This document shows positions 1 through 8,947 of a stretch of DNA of 8,947 bases, in pieces. The first letter of the stretch is position 1. Each line of letters begins with the position of its first letter. A program made the position numbers and the translations under genes. The stretch covers positions 1-8,947 of IMG/VR virus record IMGVR_UViG_2698536443_000011; one strand, 5' to 3'. The DNA comes from a virus (Duplodnaviria; Heunggongvirae; Uroviricota; Caudoviricetes). The notes beneath the pieces were generated by a model, which had not been told where the DNA came from, ran no database searches, and saw nothing but the letters and a program-made list of their open reading frames with translations.

Positions 1-28
1 TGACTAGTCTAAAAACTAGTATTAAGAC

Positions 29-48
29 TATCACTTATTTAAGTGATA
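29..48. promoter_or_regulatory. Perfect 8-bp inverted repeat with 4-bp spacer downstream of the fiber gene (operator-like or weak hairpin)
   Basis: tatcactt-attt-aagtgata at 29-48, 17 nt past the fiber stop. A second AT-rich palindrome lies nearby (actagt at 3-8 and 15-20). No U-tract. Confidence 0.3.
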
Positions 49-64
49 CTGGTTGTCTGGAGAT

Positions 65-1324
65 TCAGGGGGCCAGTCTAACCTGATCATATGCCGTAAC
101 GTTGTAACCATTACCACCATGAATACGGAAAAACACACTACGCCCGTTTTGTGGAATTGTTGCGGTTGCCAATTTGAAATATGCAGATACGTTTTCGCTA
201 GAATTGGGAACAGACATAACGACGTTTTTAACAAACATCTTATCAACTTCGGCTTTGGTGTATGCACCAATCTCGCCAGGAGTCGGCTTATCACCTTCGT
301 GATACATCTTATAGCTAAAGTTCTTCTGTCCTTCTCTATCAAAACCATAGGTTTCAACACGAGATCCACCAGACGCATAACGGAAAGTAAATCCGCGACC
401 GTGCGCTTTACCGGCAGAATGAGGAACGTTAAGAGTTAGATCCATGAGTCCATCTTGACCATTGGTACGGAAAGCACCAAAGTAGTTAAGATCTCTCGCT
501 GTCTGGTCTTCCAAATAGTTAGCTGTCTTGCTTAACAGATACCCACCATGCTTAGTATTGGTATTCTTCTTGATGTAAGCAGCATCGGCACTACCTTCAA
601 TAGAATCAATTCGCTGGTTAGCTGCGGCAATTGCGGCATCGGCACTGGCCTTGTTATTTGCAACAGTTCTTTCAATGGCTGTCTTATTCGCAGAGACCGT
701 ACTAGTAAGATTGGTGATCTTCGTGTCCGCATCTTTCTTATTATCCGCTACCGTCTTTTCTATTGCTGATTTATTTGCTGCGACAGTATTCGTTAAGTTG
801 GTAACGTTGGTATTAGTCTGATCAACTCGCGCATTAATATCTGTCTTGTTCTTGTTAATTGTCGCGTTGATAGTATCGCGGGTTGAAGTAATAGTCTGAT
901 TCAGTTCAGTCTTAGCAGCCGCCAGAGCGTTAGCAGCTTCGGTTTTATTGTTACCTACTGTGGTAGTCAAAGCATCAATTCGTTTGTTGGCTGCGGTATC
1001 GCCAGCAGTGATTGAAGCATTGAGGGTATCACGGGTAGAAGTGATAGTCTGATTAAGTTCAGCTTTAGCACTAGCCAGATTATCAGCAGCTTCTTTCTTA
1101 TTTGCTGCAATAACCTTATCTGTGTTGGCCTTGTTGGTGTCTACTTTCGTATTCAGTTCAGCGTGTTTTTCTGGAGAAACACTAATTTGGACTACGTTAT
1201 TATTTTTGTCTTTGGTGTAAATCACATGATCCGCCAGTTGTAAGGCGATCTCACCCTGTGATAATTGTTCCGGCGTTGGTTTTTTACCAGCCGTTTGTGT
1301 GCGTTTAAATTGGATCGACTGCAT
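65..1324 (-). CDS. Tail fiber-like protein with a degenerate-repeat shaft and a C-terminal globular (receptor-binding-like) domain
   Basis: 419-aa ORF with SD AGTGAGGTGATTCG-ATG. The central ~250 aa is built from short degenerate repeats with a T-V/I-x-x-N-K-x-x-A core, including two near-identical ~26-aa copies (SAKAELNQTITSTRDTLNASI / AAKTELNQTITSTRDTINATI) 51 aa apart. KPTPxEIGA-type motifs occur at the N-terminus (KKPTPEQLSQGEIA) and C-terminal domain (GDKPTPGEIGAYTKAE). The C-terminus is rich in Gly/Tyr/Phe/Asn, as in receptor-binding tips. Stop TGA at 65-67. Confidence 0.6.
   Translation of the reverse strand: MQSIQFKRTQTAGKKPTPEQLSQGEIALQLADHVIYTKDKNNNVVQISVSPEKHAELNTKVDTNKANTDKVIAANKKEAADNLASAKAELNQTITSTRDTLNASITAGDTAANKRIDALTTTVGNNKTEAANALAAAKTELNQTITSTRDTINATINKNKTDINARVDQTNTNVTNLTNTVAANKSAIEKTVADNKKDADTKITNLTSTVSANKTAIERTVANNKASADAAIAAANQRIDSIEGSADAAYIKKNTNTKHGGYLLSKTANYLEDQTARDLNYFGAFRTNGQDGLMDLTLNVPHSAGKAHGRGFTFRYASGGSRVETYGFDREGQKNFSYKMYHEGDKPTPGEIGAYTKAEVDKMFVKNVVMSVPNSSENVSAYFKLATATIPQNGRSVFFRIHGGNGYNVTAYDQVRLAP
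870..1095 (-). repeat. In-frame degenerate direct repeat inside the fiber gene (period 153 bp = 51 aa), within a wider field of shorter degenerate repeats (~600-1150)
   Basis: Plus-strand segments around 871-940 and 1024-1093 are near-identical (for example agtctgat at 893-900 and at 1046-1053), encoding the two ELNQTITSTRDT(L/I)NA(S/T)I copies. A second pair, TNLTNTVAANKSAIEKTV / TNLTSTVSANKTAIERTV, is spaced 29 aa apart. Confidence 0.6.
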
Positions 1325-1337
1325 CGAATCACCTCAC

Positions 1338-1371
1338 TATAAAACAGGAATAAGGGAGGCGTTAACCTCCC
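1338..1371 (-). terminator. Probable intrinsic terminator between the tube (V-like) and fiber genes
   Basis: Minus-strand RNA reads GGGAGGU-UAAC-GCCUCCC (7-bp stem including one G-U pair, same UAAC tetraloop as the capsid terminator) followed by the U-rich but interrupted tract UUAUUCCUGUUUUAUA. Confidence 0.45.
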
Positions 1372-1403
1372 AGCGTTCATGTTTTATTTAGGTAGGAGAA
1401 TCC

Positions 1404-2237
1404 TTAGTATTCGCCGAAATCGATCCGGTCAGTCTTAGCCACTGCGCCAATTTCGCTAGGTGTCGGTTTCTCATTGGTGGAATATACCTTGATCCATTCA
1501 GAGCGACCGTTTTCCTGAATATTTCGGACGCGTAAACGTGGTGCGCCAGAAGTATTACAGGTTAATTGCCATGCGCCATGCTCATTAGCTTGAAGGTGAA
1601 TTAATGATGTGTCGGCTGAATATGGATTACCGCTAGCAGTTCCCTTGTAAGTTACGAAACGGTTTCCGGCTAAAGCATCACTATCAATCGGACCTGTGAA
1701 TGGATGTACACCTGCACCTACGCCATAATCCCCGCGACGGAGAAGACGACCCTCCGTTGCAATACCGCGATCCAAAATCCCGCCATCTGGTTCAAGTTTA
1801 AATTCCAGTGTTACAGCTTTGTTATCACTACCACGGGTTTTGTGTGATGTGACGTAAGCATCATAGATGACATAGTAACCAGTGTTAGCAGCACTATAGC
1901 CAGAGTTCACAACATAGAACATACGGAAGCGTAAAGGTGTTTTATCCTCTACCGCTTTCATCAACATTGCTTGATGTTCGTCATCCAGAACACGGTTTAA
2001 CGTGAGTGTTGTCGGTTCCAGTCTACGATAACCAGCAAGTTTCCCCGTAGCGTCCTGATCGTACTCTTCCAGAGTTTCAATCTCTGTGGATTCTGTTAGC
2101 GTAGGGAATGCTGCGACGTTCTCAATAGAACTAAAGCTAGGATCGAAAAAGTCCGGCTGGCTATCGACCATAGTAGAAACGGAGACTTCAACATGCGACC
2201 CCGTAAAAATATCTAAGTTATCATGCGTAATATTCAT
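1404..2237 (-). CDS. Major tail tube protein (lambda gpV-like N-terminal domain) with a C-terminal fiber-like module in place of the usual Ig-like domain
   Basis: 277-aa ORF in the V position after the FII-like and U-like genes. The core EEYDQD...TLTLNRVLDDEHQAMLMKAVEDKTPLRFRMFYVV...VTLEFKLEPDG has the same layout as lambda gpV YDDSYLDDED...[33 protein letters not shown] (from memory). The C-terminal ~55 aa (...SGAPRLRVRNIQENGRSEWIKVYSTNEKPTPSEIGAVAKTD) is homologous to a module in the downstream fiber protein. SD TAAGGGGTAATA-ATG. An intrinsic terminator follows. Confidence 0.5.
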   Translation of the reverse strand: MNITHDNLDIFTGSHVEVSVSTMVDSQPDFFDPSFSSIENVAAFPTLTESTEIETLEEYDQDATGKLAGYRRLEPTTLTLNRVLDDEHQAMLMKAVEDKTPLRFRMFYVVNSGYSAANTGYYVIYDAYVTSHKTRGSDNKAVTLEFKLEPDGGILDRGIATEGRLLRRGDYGVGAGVHPFTGPIDSDALAGNRFVTYKGTASGNPYSADTSLIHLQANEHGAWQLTCNTSGAPRLRVRNIQENGRSEWIKVYSTNEKPTPSEIGAVAKTDRIDFGEY

Positions 2238-2246
2238 TATTACCCC

Positions 2247-2669
2247 TTAAAAACGCGCTAGATAAGAAAATTTAAGGCTAAGTGTCCCAACGATACCACC
2301 ATCACTAGAATCATCGTCATAATCGGTATTAGAGGCTACTGGAGTGATATCTGAAATTGAGAAGCCCAAATCTTTAAAACGTGGGTTATCCGGCTGAATC
2401 TGGATTATCTGGCAAATACCCTCATGGATTTTTGTTTCATGAATCTGAGAATATAATTGCATTTCGATAACGCATTCAGCTTGCATTGCATTACCACCAC
2501 GGACCCTAGTGTAAGTCTCATTCATGCCAGTAATCCAACAAACCACGTCATCACTAAAACCTTGCTGAGCTTGTTCTACGTTTAAAGCCAGACCTAAATC
2601 TTGTTCGATAATATCTTGCAAGGCGCGTTTGATTTTCAGTCTCGGCATATTATTAACGGTAGCGAGCAT
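2247..2669 (-). CDS. Tail terminator / head-tail connector protein, lambda gpU-like
   Basis: 140-aa ORF. The C-terminus NTDYDDDSSDGGIVGTLSLKFSYLARF resembles the lambda gpU C-terminus GYDYRRDDDAGLWSSADLTYVITYEM (from memory). SD AGGGGGTACAC-ATG. Its TAA stop is embedded in the SD of the next gene. Confidence 0.45.
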   Translation of the reverse strand: MLATVNNMPRLKIKRALQDIIEQDLGLALNVEQAQQGFSDDVVCWITGMNETYTRVRGGNAMQAECVIEMQLYSQIHETKIHEGICQIIQIQPDNPRFKDLGFSISDITPVASNTDYDDDSSDGGIVGTLSLKFSYLARF

Positions 2670-2943
2670 GTGTACCCCCTGCTAAAGTGATAAAGCAATC
2701 ACAAGTATTGTCACCATTGCGCTTAACGTATTGAACTTTGAAACGCTGGTTTTCTACTGTGACAATATCACCTTGCTTTAAGTCTCCCTCACGACAGAAT
2801 AGAAATTCTGTTTCTGTCATTACCCCCGATTCGTCGGTAGTAGTAATTTCATGATAAGCACGAATTGATTTACCACCTTCCACCGAAAATACAGGAGCAC
2901 TTCGGAACATTCTTGATAATTGTGATTCTGATAATTTGAACAT
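2653..2943 (-). CDS. Head-tail joining protein, lambda gpFII-like
   Basis: 96-aa ORF. LFCREGDLKQGDIVTVENQRFKVQYVKRNGDNTCDCFITL parallels lambda FII LFVRTDEVRQLRRGDTLTIGEENFWVDRVSPDDGGSCHLWL (from memory). SD TAAAGGGGGTAACT-ATG. Its 3' end overlaps the next gene by 17 nt. Confidence 0.55.
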   Translation of the reverse strand: MFKLSESQLSRMFRSAPVFSVEGGKSIRAYHEITTTDESGVMTETEFLFCREGDLKQGDIVTVENQRFKVQYVKRNGDNTCDCFITLAGGTHARYR

Positions 2944-2971
2944 AGTTACCCCCTTTATGGAGTATTTACAT

Positions 2972-3000
2972 ACAAAAAAGCCCCACCGTTAGGCAGGGCT
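2972..3000 (-). terminator. Rho-independent terminator downstream of the capsid gene
   Basis: Minus-strand RNA reads AGCCCUGCC-UAAC-GGUGGGGCU followed by UUUUUUGU: a 9-bp stem with two G-U pairs, a UAAC tetraloop and a U-tract. It lies directly after the TAA that closes the in-frame extension of the capsid ORF. Confidence 0.7.
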
Positions 3001-3091
3001 AATTATTATTCTTTAGTTTTACGCTGTTTTTTAGCTGTGGCTTTCGCCTTAACCGTCTGGGATTCTTCTTCCGGTTCAGGAATCAGATTTT

Positions 3092-3112
3092 CTTCCCCCA
3101 AATCGGGGGAAG
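3092..3112 (-). promoter_or_regulatory. Perfect GC-rich hairpin 23 nt downstream of the capsid UGA stop; no U-tract
   Basis: Plus strand cttccccc-aaatc-gggggaag: 8-bp perfect stem with a 5-nt loop. The flanks on both strands lack a U-tract, so it is not a canonical terminator. Confidence 0.4.
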
Positions 3113-3134
3113 GTTCAGATGGTTCTACAGGAGT

Positions 3135-5147
3135 TCATTCAGCGGAGATGTGAAGAACTTTCAGAGCTTCCGGCTGAGTAACAACATAATCCAGGTCTAC
3201 CCAGATTCGCGGAACGATAGCAGACTGTGCGCGGTAGGTAGTGTCGTCCATATCCAGTTCCAGACCGCCCCACTCACCAATGGTGATACCGTCGAACGCG
3301 CCCAGAACGATGTGGTCTGCCGGGATAACACCAGAAGTAACTACTTCGTAACCAGCCAGTTTGCCGTTTTCGATGATATAACCGGAAACGCCGTTATCTT
3401 TCAGGGTAGATTCCAGTTCAGCAGCAGTTGCACCGCTCATCGCAAACTTGATCGCCTGAGCAGGAACGCCAGCGTCGGTCAGTGCTGCAATTTCTTTCAG
3501 GAAGTCTTTGTAAGAGAAAGCGGCTTTCTTAGTAACGCGACCCGCGTCTACCAGTTGCTTAACCAGACCAGCCGGACCACGGTCGTTAGCTTTATCAGAC
3601 AGAATCAGTTGTTCCAGTTTGATGCGAACAGCTTTGTTAATGTGATCAGTGATCAGGGTAGCGATGCCGGGAACTTGCTTTATGCTAGCTCTGCTGATCG
3701 GATTCCCACCAGCGAACGTCTTAGGAGCCATTTTCACGTTTGCAAATTCAGCTTTACCTTCCGGTGCAGCACCGTTTTCATCAACGAAGCCGAAAGCGTC
3801 AACGCTGGAAGCGGTCATTTTTGGTACTGCGATCGGGGAAGTCAGGCCAGACAGAACGGTTACACCGAGGCGGCCTAAAACACTCTGAGGCAACAGCATT
3901 TCGATGTAGGATTCAGTCAGCAGTTTTTCATCAGTAACAGCGGTCAGAGTAGCTTTGGTGTTACCTTCGGAAGCAGCACGCAGAGCAGCAGCCGGAACGA
4001 ATACAGAGCCACCACGAGCAGCACGACCACGCTGCATAGTTGCAGTAGCAGCCATTGCGGAATATTCAGCTTCGTTAGCACCCAGAGCAGCACCATCTAC
4101 CAGAGAGCGAATTACGTTGTTCAGGTCAAAGATTTTTTCCATTTTAGAGTCCTTAATTTGTTGTTCGTTATTACGTTGAGCATTGGTAATGTTATTTAGT
4201 GCCTTAGTGCGGAATGCTTCCGGCGTAATTCCTTTATTTGCCAATGCGCGTTTAAATTCTTCATCGTCTTCGTTAATATTTAGCTCGCGTGCAATTTCGC
4301 GAATTTCTAATTCGTCTTCTTCGGAACGTTCAGCCACTTCTTCGATTTTTTCTTCTTCAACCGGAGCGGCTTCACGTTCTTCTTTTACTTCTTCTGTTTC
4401 CCGAACAGTTGAACTATCATCATCAACACTTTCAGGATGTTCAGCGTCTTTTCCGTCTTCGAGATTTTCATCTTCTTTATTCTCTTCAACTTGGCGCTCT
4501 TGAGTTTCTTCTACTTCCGATTCTTTATTTTCTTCTACCGGAGTTTCTTCAACCTGAGCGGCTTCTTGTTCTTCTTTGATTTCTTCGATTTGTTCTTTAG
4601 TCATATCGTGTTTAGCCTCCAAATTAACTGTGATAGTATTTAGAGAGCGATTTAAACCGACCGTATCGTCTGCGGGAACGGTGACAAATGAGAGTTCATA
4701 GGGTGCCCACTTAGTAACAATCAATTGTCCTTTGGTGTAGTCGATGTGATATTCTTTAATGTCATAACCGACAGAAATTTTTTCCATCGTACCTTCAATG
4801 ACTTTATTACGAATATCATTAGCCAAAGTGCCATGCTTAGAGAATTTAACCAGAGCACGGCCTACGTTATCCGCATCGATTCGAGCGTCGCAGACTACAC
4901 CTAAATGATTATCGAAATTATGATTGAACAGCAACGGAGCGTTATTATTCAGACGAGACAGATCAACCGCTTCCGGTGTATGTACCAGAATTTCATCTAA
5001 TACCACCATTTCTTGATTTTGCTCATCCCAGAATTGGCGCTGATAAGGCTGTTCACTGGAGAAAGCAATTTCAAATTCGTATTGATCGTTATGCCCTTCG
5101 TTAATAACTCCACCGTAACCGTTAAGTTCGCGGCGAAATTTAAGCAT
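3135..5147 (-). CDS. Tripartite head protein: N-terminal prohead serine protease domain (HK97 gp4/S78-like), Glu-rich scaffold-like linker, C-terminal HK97-fold major capsid protein
   Basis: Residues 1-170 carry protease-like motifs (NHNFDNHLGVV..., MEKISVGYD with a candidate catalytic Ser, ELSFVTVPADD resembling the HK97 protease C-terminal motif). Residues ~175-300 are extremely acidic (EEIKEEQEAAQVEETPVEENKESEVEE...). Residues ~330-670 are Ala/Gly/Thr-rich and capsid-like. SD AAGGTGATTAA-ATG at 5147. Stop TGA at 3135-3137, followed 135 nt later by a strong intrinsic terminator. Same architecture as the tripartite capsid gene described for Salmonella phage Gifsy-2. Confidence 0.8.
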   Translation of the reverse strand: MLKFRRELNGYGGVINEGHNDQYEFEIAFSSEQPYQRQFWDEQNQEMVVLDEILVHTPEAVDLSRLNNNAPLLFNHNFDNHLGVVCDARIDADNVGRALVKFSKHGTLANDIRNKVIEGTMEKISVGYDIKEYHIDYTKGQLIVTKWAPYELSFVTVPADDTVGLNRSLNTITVNLEAKHDMTKEQIEEIKEEQEAAQVEETPVEENKESEVEETQERQVEENKEDENLEDGKDAEHPESVDDDSSTVRETEEVKEEREAAPVEEEKIEEVAERSEEDELEIREIARELNINEDDEEFKRALANKGITPEAFRTKALNNITNAQRNNEQQIKDSKMEKIFDLNNVIRSLVDGAALGANEAEYSAMAATATMQRGRAARGGSVFVPAAALRAASEGNTKATLTAVTDEKLLTESYIEMLLPQSVLGRLGVTVLSGLTSPIAVPKMTASSVDAFGFVDENGAAPEGKAEFANVKMAPKTFAGGNPISRASIKQVPGIATLITDHINKAVRIKLEQLILSDKANDRGPAGLVKQLVDAGRVTKKAAFSYKDFLKEIAALTDAGVPAQAIKFAMSGATAAELESTLKDNGVSGYIIENGKLAGYEVVTSGVIPADHIVLGAFDGITIGEWGGLELDMDDTTYRAQSAIVPRIWVDLDYVVTQPEALKVLHISAE

Positions 5148-5167
5148 TTAATCACCTTTAATTGATT

Positions 5168-5184
5168 GGGGGCATTGCGCCCCC
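5168..5184 (-). promoter_or_regulatory. GC hairpin in the portal-capsid intergenic spacer, just upstream of the capsid SD
   Basis: Plus strand gggggc-attgc-gccccc: 6-bp GC stem with a 5-nt loop. It sits between the portal stop (5193) and the capsid SD (about 5152-5158). No U-tract follows on the minus strand. Confidence 0.35.
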
Positions 5185-5192
5185 GTTGGTTA

Positions 5193-6704
5193 TTAGGGAT
5201 CGGCTGGGGAATTTTTTTCTTCACCCTCACCATCAACGATAATATTTAGTGCGCTCTTTTCGGCTTGAATCTCTGAGAATACTTTTTCAGGATCGTCACC
5301 ACGTTCTAATATAACGGCAGTACGTGATTTAAGTCCTTTATCAATTAAAGCAATCTCGGCGTTTACGTCTTTAATTGGATCGACGGATTCAAAACGCGGA
5401 CGAATAATAGTAGTGTTCTCGATAATATGCGGAATTGCCGTAATACGAATCGGAACAATACCACGCGCGGAATAATGGCGTAGATACGCTTCGAAAATTG
5501 GCAATACCACTGTTTCAATTAATTTGTTTTGCAGTGCTTTAACGCGCGTTCTTTGAAGTAATTCGCCGTAGCGTGCAGCGCTGTAATTTATTTGGCTAGT
5601 ATCGCCAGTTAAGCCCTGATTGAACACGCCAAGACCCATTGCTATGCTAGTGAACATACCAGCGTTAAATGAATTGAAATCATCGCCGCTTTGCGTGGAT
5701 TGAATACTCTTGATCGTTGCCCCTTCCGGCAATTCCTGAATAGTACCCGGCGCGAAATCGTGAATAACTTCCGGCGCTTGATATTGTTCATCATCTTCAC
5801 CAGTATCAAAATCGTCACCAGAATCTTTCGGACGCTCGATGAACGCCATGCTACTAGCTGAAATTCGTTTCTGGACCAGTACAGCTTCGCGGAATGCGTC
5901 TTGATGTGCGATATCCTTAATCACTGGCAGGAAGTCAGTCACCCCACGCAGAGATTCAGCCGCAAGTGGTTGATAATAATGGCATACTTGCGAAGCATCT
6001 ACGCGATAGTTATCACCTGTGTAAGTCTGAGTCAGTAGGTTGATTTTACGAAACCAAAATGCAACAGGGCGCATTGTTTCTACGTCATACTCGATCCCCT
6101 GATAGATAGCACGTTCTTTGCTTACTTCACGGTTGAGCGTCCAGTCGCACTTATCAGCAGACAGGATAGAAACATTTAACTCATTGTTTTCTTTGGTTAA
6201 AACAATGAAGCACTCACCGCCCATTACGCGCTCACGTTCAGCCATTACCAGCAATTCACGGAAGTTAAAGCGACCGTTACGAGAGAAGCGTTTAGCATTC
6301 TGCGCCCACTTCCAGAAAGCATTCTCGATCTGCTTATTCAGTGCGCTATCAAGTTTGCCATTTGATTTAACGATTGATGGCTTCGGATCTAGGCCAGTAC
6401 CTACCACCATATCGGTTATGTATTGCGTGTAGCGACTGCCTACGGAAGTGTTTAAGGCCAGAGTACGACCCTGATCATAAAGGCGCTTACCGTTCGATTT
6501 GAGAGCCTTATTGAAGGTTCCTGTAATGGTGTCTTGTTGAAGTGATCCATCAATACGATCACCAACCAGTCCTAAACTCCGTTGAGATAGGTCTTTCTGG
6601 AATTTTTCTACTTGCTTATCGATGAAAATTTTTGGTTGTTGCTGGCGGTGATTAGTTTTAACTGGAGTTTCTACCGCCTTTTTGCGTCGAAAAAGATTAA
6701 ACAT
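5193..6704 (-). CDS. Portal protein, lambda gpB family
   Basis: 503-aa ORF immediately downstream of terminase and the W-like gene. The segment FTSIAMGLGVFNQGLTGDTSQINYSAARYGELLQ parallels lambda gpB IAAGLGVSYEQLSRNYAQMSYSTARASANE (recalled from memory). Acidic C-terminus. SD TAAGGGGTAAATC-ATG. Stop TAA at 5193-5195. Confidence 0.8.
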   Translation of the reverse strand: MFNLFRRKKAVETPVKTNHRQQQPKIFIDKQVEKFQKDLSQRSLGLVGDRIDGSLQQDTITGTFNKALKSNGKRLYDQGRTLALNTSVGSRYTQYITDMVVGTGLDPKPSIVKSNGKLDSALNKQIENAFWKWAQNAKRFSRNGRFNFRELLVMAERERVMGGECFIVLTKENNELNVSILSADKCDWTLNREVSKERAIYQGIEYDVETMRPVAFWFRKINLLTQTYTGDNYRVDASQVCHYYQPLAAESLRGVTDFLPVIKDIAHQDAFREAVLVQKRISASSMAFIERPKDSGDDFDTGEDDEQYQAPEVIHDFAPGTIQELPEGATIKSIQSTQSGDDFNSFNAGMFTSIAMGLGVFNQGLTGDTSQINYSAARYGELLQRTRVKALQNKLIETVVLPIFEAYLRHYSARGIVPIRITAIPHIIENTTIIRPRFESVDPIKDVNAEIALIDKGLKSRTAVILERGDDPEKVFSEIQAEKSALNIIVDGEGEEKNSPADP

Positions 6705-6714
6705 GATTTACCCC

Positions 6715-7212
6715 TTATCGCGTAAGACGTAATTTGATATTTTTAATCGGGCTAATTCCCTGTTTACGTCGTTCGGCTTGAATTAATTTAGATAACTGAC
6801 GTTCATAATCGACTTTTAGAGTCTGGAGAACACCCAATGACTCATAAACGAAAGTATTCCCTTTCACTGTCATTTGAGATAATGCGGCTTCGTCCCCAGA
6901 TAAACGGGCGAAAATAACTTGCTCGATTAAGGCGATAGTTTCCCGCAGATATTCTTTTTTGGATTGTTTGGCGAATACTGGTAAAACAGTTAATTCCTGC
7001 ATTGATATCAGTTCTTCTTCCAAAGTTATTACGATGGTATATTTACCTTCGGCAAAATCTAAGGTTTTAATCTCATGATTAGCCGGAGAATCATCAACCT
7101 GATAGATGATACCTTTATTATTATTTCCTACCTGAATTGTTACACCCTCTTCATTCGCCAGCGTGACTTTTTCGCCTTTACGAATTACTAAGGGAATTAG
7201 TTCTAAACTCAT
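6715..7212 (-). CDS. Hypothetical virion morphogenesis protein; C-terminal third weakly resembles lambda gpW (head completion), N-terminal ~90 aa unassigned
   Basis: 165-aa ORF filling the gap between terminase and portal genes, the position gpW occupies in lambda. Shine-Dalgarno TAAGGGGTAATT precedes the ATG. Its TAA stop is embedded in the portal gene's SD. The C-terminal LGVLQTLKVDYERQLSKLIQAERRKQG loosely resembles lambda gpW (SVSDLKKYIAELEVQTG...RRRG). The functional call is weak. Confidence 0.5.
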   Translation of the reverse strand: MSLELIPLVIRKGEKVTLANEEGVTIQVGNNNKGIIYQVDDSPANHEIKTLDFAEGKYTIVITLEEELISMQELTVLPVFAKQSKKEYLRETIALIEQVIFARLSGDEAALSQMTVKGNTFVYESLGVLQTLKVDYERQLSKLIQAERRKQGISPIKNIKLRLTR

Positions 7213-7284
7213 AATTACCCCTTATTTAATTGTTATTGGATTAACAATATTTAGGAGTAAGCCGCCCCGAAGGACGGCGAGTTA

Positions 7285-8947
7285 TTAGAACGATGTTACC
7301 CAGCTACGGCCTCTATTTGGGCGTCTGGCGATGTTTTGACGTTGTGGTCGTGTGATTGGCTTAGTTTCTTCGATTTGCTCGTTAGATTGCGTTTCAGGAG
7401 CTTTTACGGGTTCTTCGACAACACGGTTTAAGCTGTCTTTCATTGCAATGAGTTTATCCCATGACATTTTTGAAAGGACGTAGCGAGAAGCAGCATAGCT
7501 ATAAACCAGACAGTCGAGAGCCTCGTTTCGGGTACTACCTGGATTTTTCACCCAACGCACGCCAGTAGTAGTACGCTTGATGGATTCACTCAAAAGCTGA
7601 TCGAGATAATCATCAGGGACGGTGTCTGATATTTCTAAGGCAATATGAGGATTATCTTTCAGGTTTCTAACCAGCATTTCACGAACAGCAGATTTACCAA
7701 CGTTAACGCCCAGCATAAGCAATTCATGACCACCTGTGCGGGTAGGTTTAACCGGAATCACTGGAGCATTACCAGATGAACTACCTTTGATCGCGTGTAG
7801 ATTCTTCCACTTGCCGCAAATACGGTATCCGGCTTGAGTGAATCGACCGTTCGATGTATCAAGGAAGCTGGCGAGCATTGGTACACGTTCACCATTAACG
7901 TTATAGAATTTGGTTTTCTTGAAGTTAACCAGGCGATCCCAAACAGGTGATTCATATCGTTCACAGTTATGATCGTAAAAGCTGCGGTGATCCAGAATGT
8001 AAACCTTATCTTTCGCTACACCTAAGATGGTAGATTCTGCGCGGTCCAATTGCTGGTCAATTCCTGAACACAAGAAAATCACGTCATCAGGGATATTCTC
8101 GATAGAAACATCTGTTTTGAGTTGTTCCAGTTCATTTGCTTCTACTGCCGTGTCCTGATCGTCGTATACCTTGCCTAACACGGTGTTATAAAATGATTGT
8201 AGATCAAAGGATTGCCACGCATGACTAAAATCAACCACACAAGCGCGGATCGTGCTGAATGGTGAATACAGACGGCTGATCCAGAATCCGGCTACTTCAC
8301 TTTCACGGGTTACTCGCCATTCACCAGCAGCCACCGCCCTGATCCGCTCTCCTTCTGTCCATGCGTTCTTACAGTGGGGGCAAATATAACGAGCGGTATC
8401 AGGATCGGGTAAGTTCTTACCATCGATGTTACGCCATTCAAATTGAACGTTTTCCCACTCGATCACCTGGTGTTCCCCGCAATGAGGACACGGAACAAAA
8501 AACATACGCATATCACTTGATAACCATTGCTGGTTAATGCTTCCCAGCTTACTGGTCGGGGTACTGGATACGACTAATCGGCCTTCGTCGCCAAAGGTAG
8601 TTAAACGGTTAGCAGCCAGTGCCACCGGATCACCTTCTTCTGAGGCTGTAGCAGCATCGATTTCGTCTAGTAGTCCGACCTTTGCAGTCTTACCGCGCAG
8701 GGTCGATGGACTGGTTAGCGATACCATGTACAGGAAGTGATTCGTTTTTAGCTGTAGCTGGTTATTGTTGTTAACCGCATTGCGATCATTCTTGTCTGTA
8801 ACCACGTCTTTTAATGCATCACATGCTTCGATAGACGGTCGGTGAACCGCCCCGGGTTTCCTGGAGAGTGTTTTATCTGTGAACTCAGGCTGCCAGATCA
8901 TCGTTTCCGATGGAAGCATAATAAGCTTTTTCTGCTTCTGCCGGAGG
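7285..8947 (-). CDS. terL: Terminase large subunit, lambda gpA family; 5'-partial (reading frame stays open to the window edge at 8947, so the true start lies outside the window)
   Basis: Translation contains the paired Cys/His motifs [16 protein letters not shown] and [12 protein letters not shown], plus [17 protein letters not shown] and [15 protein letters not shown]. From memory these match lambda gpA (FHVACPHCGEEQ / ARYICE / AYSPFTTW / AGIDSQLDRYE / RRNEALDCFVYALAA). The VGLLDEIDA stretch resembles a Walker-B-like segment. The frame upstream of the first Met (8919) has no stop before 8947. Stop TAA at 7285-7287. Confidence 0.85.

Follow-up and report, generated by a model that had tools for sequence, protein, structure and literature searches.

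Architecture of the fused head gene

The window analysed here is a stretch of 8,947 nucleotides (nt) that makes up positions 1 to 8,947 of the IMG/VR record IMGVR_UViG_2698536443_000011, assigned to the tailed phages (Caudoviricetes). It holds a run of genes on the minus strand: a terminase gene, a gene of 165 amino acids (aa), a portal gene, an open reading frame (ORF) of 670 aa, a gpFII-like gene, genes for proteins of 140 and 277 aa, and a tail-fibre ORF. The 670-codon gene is our subject. It encodes in one frame an S78 prohead protease, an acidic linker and an HK97-fold major capsid protein, as the original prediction had read it, and it also contains two candidate internal translation starts, Met182 and Met336, from which protease-free capsid precursors may be made. 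The fusion architecture is real but ordinary and already catalogued, and the nested-start signal is the sole novel part of the finding. The gene comprises the following features:

3135..5147, minus strand: 670-aa ORF encoding S78 prohead protease, acidic linker and HK97-fold major capsid protein, 73.7 kDa
5151..5159, minus strand: Shine-Dalgarno (SD) site of start 1, AAAGGTGAT, 3 nt 5' of the ATG at 5147-5145
4653..5087, minus strand: protease domain, residues 21-165, with the assemblin / T4 gp21 fold
4920-4922 and 4773-4775, minus strand: codons at the catalytic positions His76 and Ser125, respectively
4668-4670, minus strand: codon of the near-invariant Asp160
4248..4604, minus strand: acidic linker, residues 182-300, predicted to be disordered
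3948..4142, minus strand: conserved helical N-terminal extension, residues 336-400, a delta-like propeptide presumed to be removed at maturation
3138..3947, minus strand: predicted mature HK97-fold capsid protein, approximately residues 401-670, 28.5 kDa, N-terminus placed by homology
2979..3000, minus strand: terminator-like hairpin with a T-run, 3' of the capsid stop codon

The assignment of the ORF to protease, linker and capsid is held with high confidence. In the N-terminal part, Peptidase_S78 (PF04586) matches residues 40-162 (E 4.5e-10, 40.3 bits against a gathering cut-off of 21), residues 1-181 alone score 43.5 bits against the same Pfam model, and there is no match to CLP_protease. 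The protease motifs that had been cited were located at Ser125 and at residues 153-161, and His76 and Ser125 are invariant in 147/147 diverse homologues. A search of PDB sequences with the protease, profile search included, gave no match, whereas a fold search identified the assemblin / T4 gp21-like fold. The score against TIGR01543 (proheadase_HK97), 36.4 bits, stays below the curated cut-off of 59, so that the domain is a relative and not an equivalog. In the C-terminal part, Phage_capsid (PF05065) matches residues 412-666 above the gathering score (E 5.9e-24), and the HK97 fold was recovered as well. PHROG 617, 'major head protein', matches end to end (E 1.4e-91, residues 21-665 aligned to positions 24-621 of the 626-position profile), and this profile itself already covers the protease and capsid halves. 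NCBIfam NF045541, 'prohead protease/major capsid protein fusion protein', matches the N-terminal half only, at 133.6 bits against a cut-off of 525; it shares the architecture but is a different named family.

In the AlphaFold model of the 670-aa protein (mean predicted local distance difference test score 73), residues 21-165 form a confident beta-rich domain and residues 169-272 are disordered. Helices follow at 276-333, with a hinge of low confidence at 325-335, and the structure is confident from 338 to the C-terminus. Residues 182-300 contain 44% Asp+Glu and have an isoelectric point of 4.05. Start 1 has an SD free energy (dG) of -6.9. The hairpin at 2979-3000 (minus strand) is GC-rich and separates the capsid stop codon from the following gene; it may act as a partial terminator, with more capsid mRNA than mRNA of the downstream genes as the result.

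The boundary between extension and capsid was set by alignment to the chain start of PDB 8GTA, the capsid of the homologous roseophage vB_DshS-R4C (R4C). The R4C gene encodes 629 aa and the capsid chain in 8GTA has 268 aa, residues 362-629, so that approximately 60% of the precursor is absent from the mature chain. This supports the original proposal that a large part of the polypeptide, put there at about half, is removed. The R4C structure paper does not discuss cleavage or processing. Alignment to the R4C chain would place the mature N-terminus of the window protein near residue 401, with a capsid of 28.5 kDa, and cleavage would probably occur near residue 395-401.

Candidate internal starts and a proposed nested-product model

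Four further features in the frame concern internal initiation:

4616..4621, minus strand: internal SD site 2, TGGAGG, 11 nt before the Met182 ATG, dG -9.3
4602..4604, minus strand: candidate internal start 2, Met182; predicted product of 489 aa and 53.0 kDa, linker plus capsid
4150..4154, minus strand: internal SD site 3, AAGGA, 7 nt before the Met336 ATG, within Lys332(AAG)-Asp333(GAC)
4140..4142, minus strand: candidate internal start 3, Met336; predicted product of 335 aa and 35.1 kDa, short propeptide plus capsid

These sites can be read in two ways. Ribosomes may also initiate at Met182 and Met336; or the gene encodes a strict polyprotein, initiated at Met1 only, with protease and capsid made 1:1 and all of the protease and linker removed autocatalytically. 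On the second reading the SD-ATG combinations would be by-products of Lys/Asp/Glu-rich coding, conserved protein motifs for cleavage or docking, or pause sites. For the comparison at the DNA level we used 80 IMG/VR viral contigs and 80 bacterial genome loci, 76 of them analysable. A single uninterrupted fusion ORF is present in 80/80 viral contigs and 76/76 bacterial loci, and no stand-alone capsid gene beginning at the Met336 position was found, both in keeping with the strict polyprotein. An alignment of representatives divides the family into two subclades, and the window gene falls in clade A, with hosts in the Enterobacterales.

In clade A, a Met preceded by Lys-Asp/Glu stands directly ahead of a conserved helix (FDLNNVIRS in the window protein), and the context of this Met336 in the window is TAAGGA-N7-ATG. 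AAGGA is found 7-13 nt before the ATG at this position in 18/18 clade-A viral loci, and a Met336-type SD in 16/16 further genomic loci from named Enterobacterales (15 with AAGGA, one with AAGGT), the 34 loci representing approximately 14 lineages at <=60% identity. An unbiased scan of every alignment column for SD plus start gave a single peak in clade A, at positions 335-339 in 18/18 loci, and no peak in clade B. The core SD pentamer accompanies 17 of the 18 focal ATGs, against 6 of 176 other internal in-frame ATGs. Among 120 close E. coli/Shigella homologues Met182 and Met336 are both invariant, whereas residues between SD and ATG vary.

Three properties of this site argue against a strict polyprotein. 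The Lys codon within the SD is always AAG, against a background of 26% of Lys codons in clade-A genes, which points to selection at the synonymous level; in the window gene it is the one AAG among 11 Lys codons before Asp or Glu. SD and ATG co-vary, for in the sister lineage represented by loci L003 and L006 Leu replaces Met336, the Lys codon is AAA, and an SD-ATG lies 12-16 codons further upstream. Finally, the spacing between SD and ATG is held at 7-13 nt despite changing codons between them.

Some other candidates were rejected. The Met of the clade-B 'IG[LM]S' motif is without SD context, and its Leu codon usage equals the background. Natural split genes do not serve as proof of start 3: P0139, a protease-only protein of 297 aa, comes from a copy cut short by an IS3-type element, and two loci with tblastn matches beginning at residues 313 and 336 (L093 and L100) carry full-length fused ORFs. 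A search for an internal sigma-70 promoter in 2900-5300 found none.

A post-protease SD-ATG comparable to that of Met182 occurs in 10/13 clade-A lineages and is frequent in clade B, where 79/113 loci have an ATG with an SD of dG <= -5 within 60 codons after the protease motif, compared with 22% of control windows; at the stricter dG <= -9 the figures are 19% of loci and 2% of control windows. An ATG codon in this 60-codon stretch has SD context in 58% of cases and a non-ATG codon in 19% (odds ratio 5.8, p 2e-25). In R4C the site is GGAGGA-N4-ATG (dG -9.5), 25 codons after IPAD, and in E. coli phage ep3 it is GAGGA-N7-ATG at codon 216.

RNA structure and codon usage were used as further lines of evidence. 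The local RNA at Met1, Met182 and Met336 has minimum free energies of -5.8, -3.6 and -4.4 kcal/mol, respectively, the least structured of the 12 in-frame ATGs (mean -10.1), which a strict polyprotein does not lead one to expect. The codon adaptation index (CAI), computed with the E. coli weights of Sharp and Li, rises from 0.32 in codons 1-181 to 0.42 in 182-335 and 0.68 in 336-670, with neighbouring genes at 0.25-0.34. The best single change point in the window gene lies after codon 332 (near-optimal range 330-336). In the window lineage and in the lineage of locus L007 the step coincides with start 3; it is at codon 179 in L003 and 187 in L006, where the start-2 ATGs are at 180 and 188, and after codon 217 in ep3, adjoining the SD-ATG at codon 216. 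Steps that match start 3 in some lineages and start 2 in others speak against the strict polyprotein, and the highly adapted linker in L003 and L006 is not what would be predicted if disordered linkers were simply less biased.

It is the position of the step, and not the asymmetry between N- and C-terminal halves, that discriminates between the two readings in these sequences. The asymmetry was tried as a clade-A-specific test and rejected: the effective number of codons (Nc) drops from N to C in 17/17 clade-A loci and in 90% of clade-B loci, with no significant difference. Because clade B shows the same Nc asymmetry, codon bias was used only together with change-point positions. Change points from a host-agnostic 'self-CAI' in about 150 loci were set aside as noisy and are not primary evidence.

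Several observations weigh against the use of internal starts. The SD spacing of 11 nt at Met182 is long, and start 2 is absent from the L007 lineage (about nine loci). Acidic codons lift the SD-like background to 12-19% in linkers, as the strict polyprotein reading would also stress. Codon bias is weaker in the N- than in the C-terminal part of nearly every family member (in clade B, of 90%), and hence also where the conserved start 3 is missing; many loci in the host-agnostic analysis show a non-significant step or one distant from the candidate starts. The locus counts overstate independence, because the loci are phylogenetically related. The case for internal initiation in this lineage is purely comparative, we came across no published account of nested starts in fusions of this type, and this copy, in a prophage remnant truncated by an insertion sequence (IS), may not be expressed at all. 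By our own estimate a T=7 procapsid could hold 415 copies of a 40-kDa extension, a point in favour of the strict polyprotein. Weighing both sides, we consider a strict polyprotein rather unlikely.

We therefore prefer to read the gene as a nested set of products, since its putative internal ribosome-binding sites are conserved and each is followed by an in-frame start, as in nested genes of the lambda C/Nu3 and Mu I/Z type. Initiation at Met1 would give a 74-kDa polyprotein of S78 protease, an acidic disordered linker of about 120 aa, a 65-aa helical extension and the capsid subunit. Internal initiation at Met182, directly after the protease, would give a 53-kDa linker-capsid chain, and at Met336, ahead of the conserved helices, a 35-kDa capsid precursor with the 65-residue extension only. 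The short products would form the bulk of the shell subunits, and rarer full-length chains would co-assemble by way of their capsid domain and thereby bring the protease inside the procapsid, where it would cut every N-terminal extension near residue 395-401 to leave a shell protein of approximately 28.5 kDa. That at least one internal start is used seems to us quite probable, and the model as a whole is favoured with somewhat less assurance; how the products are proportioned and what the linker does are deduced. With conserved internal SD and ATG sites, synthesis of protease and capsid need not follow a 1:1 ratio, and the earlier claim of a 1:1 ratio at synthesis is doubtful and probably wrong.

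One protease per shell subunit is far above what HK97 or lambda use, and by this excess tripartite capsid genes pose a stoichiometry problem. If internal initiation is true, thousands of genomes carry such genes under a mistaken single-product annotation and protease dosage becomes a tunable translational parameter. Models of capsid assembly would have to allow for three precursor species, which bacterial-immunity sensors of phage capsid or protease proteins would likewise face.

Distribution of the fusion, its gene module and the state of this copy

A phmmer search of 1.84 billion cluster representatives with the 670-aa protein found 6521 relatives at E<=1e-3, of which 421 reach E<=1e-30, and nearly all of the best 150 are 560-760 aa long with both halves matched. 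Isolated phages that share the fused gene include R4C, RcRhea/RcCronus, phiHAP-1, VP882, PPpW-3, the FoX phages, ep3, ECOO78 and Bas97. Database families for such fusions exist (PHROG 617/4523 and NCBIfam NF045541), and single-gene fusions of protease, scaffold and capsid have been published for the Pseudomonas MD8 group (PMC8508860) and for many small actinophages of clusters EE/AN/AX/FE/CW/DM/EL (PMC7302621). With 421 clusters at the stricter threshold, PHROGs of its own and these published cases, the architecture can no longer be called uncommon, as it first had been.

The genes upstream of the fusion in the window are the following:

5193..6704, minus strand: portal gene of the lambda family, inherited together with the fusion gene
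6715..7212, minus strand: 165-aa head-tail-joining-like gene (small connector gene) between terminase and portal
7285..8842, minus strand: gpA-type large terminase gene (frame 7285-8919), N-terminally truncated by the IS3-family element at 8843-8947

Terminase and portal score above the cut-offs of PF05876 and PF20454 (terminase) and of PF05136 and TIGR01539, which confirms the lambda gpA/gpB type proposed for them. No lambda-type gpC (S49) protease or gpE-family capsid was recognized in the 670-aa protein, which matches S78 and PF05065 only. This combination had been taken as a mosaic head module, and one may imagine a recent recombination of an HK97-type protease-capsid cassette into a lambda-type packaging module, with the joint near codon 335. 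The shift of GC from ~0.40 to ~0.50 and of CAI from 0.36 to 0.68 around codon 332 would suit such an event, as would the established fact that lambda uses an S49 protease and another capsid family. However, 73 loci have a portal homologue immediately upstream of the fusion gene and 53 have a terminase homologue before the portal, at 22-48% identity, which is essentially every locus with sufficient upstream DNA; PHROG 617 matches across the supposed joint from end to end; and the compositional step recurs in relatives only 30-45% identical, which fits selection and not a single recent recombination. Portal and terminase thus accompany the fusion family-wide as an old co-inherited module, and a recent mosaic origin, local to this phage, is very improbable. 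On the best reading the 670-codon gene supplies the head shell in a module widespread among tailed phages and composed of a gpA-type terminase, a small connector, a lambda-type portal and an S78 protease-capsid fusion.

In the E. coli AP028561 locus (L164, 4001-6064), a 297-aa cluster representative that appears as a 'stand-alone S78 protease' is a fusion gene cut by an IS3-type element. The case illustrates that truncated fusions can be mistaken for separate protease genes in databases.

The window region is an E. coli/Shigella prophage, and at least 80% of the window is present in 28 complete E. coli genomes at 91-94% identity. Its counterpart in strain PSJ-22 (NZ_AP027634, 1.18-1.21 Mb) is a siphovirus-like prophage that is inserted in ycdX and has genes for tail tube and tape measure downstream. 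The exact 670-aa protein is in NCBI, labelled 'phage major capsid protein'. At one end of the window, 8843-8947 is the end of an IS3-family (IS1203/IS629-like) element found at approximately 25,000 places in E. coli genomes; it removes about 90 N-terminal codons of the terminase gene, and because of this cut the prophage copy cannot package DNA by itself. At the other end, bases 1-79 belong to another multicopy repeat, which occurs at 20,757 places in E. coli genomes and mostly lacks annotation, and the tail-fibre ORF beside it has 419 aa against 1180 aa in an intact relative. The window looks like a prophage fragment bounded by IS elements. These truncations at both ends could mean that the 670-codon gene is itself a decaying pseudogene without current function. 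Against this, its frame is intact, the identical protein is present on four contigs, and more than 100 variants at 93-100% identity retain both catalytic residues and both internal Mets; moreover, the proposal concerns the state of one copy and not the coding content of the gene. We give it very little credence.

The remaining genes of the prophage offer further observations. The fibre-ORF segment at window positions 80-535 shares 98% identity with the tail-fibre gene of ELT4, a T4-like phage, and 76-85% with the gp37-type distal fibre genes of further T-even phages, which points to exchange of receptor-binding modules between temperate siphophage-like prophages and virulent myophages. The 277-aa protein (1404-2237, minus strand) has an N-terminus weakly like major tail proteins (phrog_158, 1.4e-8). 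Its gene is kept directly after the head-completion genes in the enterobacterial clade, with a long fibre gene next, and the intact relative of this region has a distinct tail-tube gene further downstream; a decoration protein, a head fibre or a neck fibre are candidate roles. The closest 'phage' record to the window module is Escherichia phage DCP80 (PQ671644; locus L003), annotated as a 141-kb T4-like Straboviridae genome. Its positions 1-13786 encode a siphophage-type module (gpA terminase, portal and fusion capsid), all labelled hypothetical, and either a chimeric assembly or an unusual acquisition may account for this.

Comparison with known systems

The window protein shares its protease family with HK97 gp4 (Pfam S78, a weak TIGR01543 match and the assemblin/gp21 fold) and its capsid family, PF05065, with HK97 gp5, which a profile built from the window protein matches at E 2e-7. 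In HK97, as proposed here from the homologous sequences, an N-terminal extension is removed by the protease, and the Met182 and Met336 products, an extension plus capsid, would resemble gp5 with its delta domain. The systems differ in that protease and capsid genes are separate in HK97 and fused in frame here, and gp4 docks non-covalently on the delta domain, whereas here the tether is covalent. The delta domain of gp5 has 102 aa; its place is taken here by the disordered acidic linker and the 65-aa helical segment. The packaging genes of the window module, in contrast to those of HK97, are lambda-type. In herpesviruses, UL26 and UL26.5 provide a protease fused to an assembly protein and an abundant shorter in-frame product of the same reading frame, a parallel to the proposed nested products; there the nested product comes from a separate transcript and the capsid protein from a separate gene.

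Lambda shares the gpA-type terminase and gpB-type portal. Its Nu3 is a shorter assembly protein made from an in-frame internal start inside C (Shaw and Murialdo 1980, cited in PMC8508860), and this logic of a protease gene holding an internal start resembles the nesting proposed here. The lambda protease, however, is S49/ClpP-like and not S78, the capsid protein E is encoded by a separate gene of another Pfam family, and the proposed nested products, unlike Nu3, would extend into the capsid domain. The actinophage clusters and the Pseudomonas MD8 group, likened by published function, also unite protease, scaffold and capsid functions in one gene; they differ in their hosts, and the MD8 protease is ClpP-like. 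In the papers on MD8 and the actinophages we found no analysis of internal starts (PMC8508860, PMC7302621).

Roseophage R4C (gene 006, PDB 8GTA) has the gene order of the window module, and it resembles the window gene in its 629-aa precursor against a 268-aa capsid chain and in its post-protease SD-ATG. It differs as a member of clade B without the start-3 signal, with an 'IGLS..E' motif ahead of the conserved helix and a linker that is Pro/Ala-rich and not acidic.

Gifsy-2, the established tripartite gene to which the window gene had been likened, was compared through GenBank record NC_010393 and a Pfam scan. One gene of approximately 700 codons (22471-24561; our locus L168) encodes protease, middle domain and capsid and adjoins the portal gene. 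However, the protease is ClpP (PF00574) and the capsid domain Phage_capsid_4 / Mu gpT-like, neither of which is matched by the window protein, and there is no detectable sequence similarity between the two proteins (BLASTP E 0.41). To judge from the sequences, Gifsy-2 is an independent, convergent fusion, an analogue and not a homologue, and the comparison does not hold in the sense first intended. Directly after its protease, at Met221, Gifsy-2 nevertheless has GAGGAG-N9-ATG (dG -8.8) in the least-structured local RNA, which hints at the same nested-start logic as in lambda Nu3. We lean slightly towards a general view in which tailed-phage protease-capsid fusions are, family-wide, nested in-frame gene sets: a post-protease ribosome-binding site would make the bulk of protease-free capsid subunits, with a second site in the enterobacterial phages, the ratio would be set by start strength, and a minority of chains would carry the tethered protease, with Met221 of Gifsy-2 perhaps acting alike.

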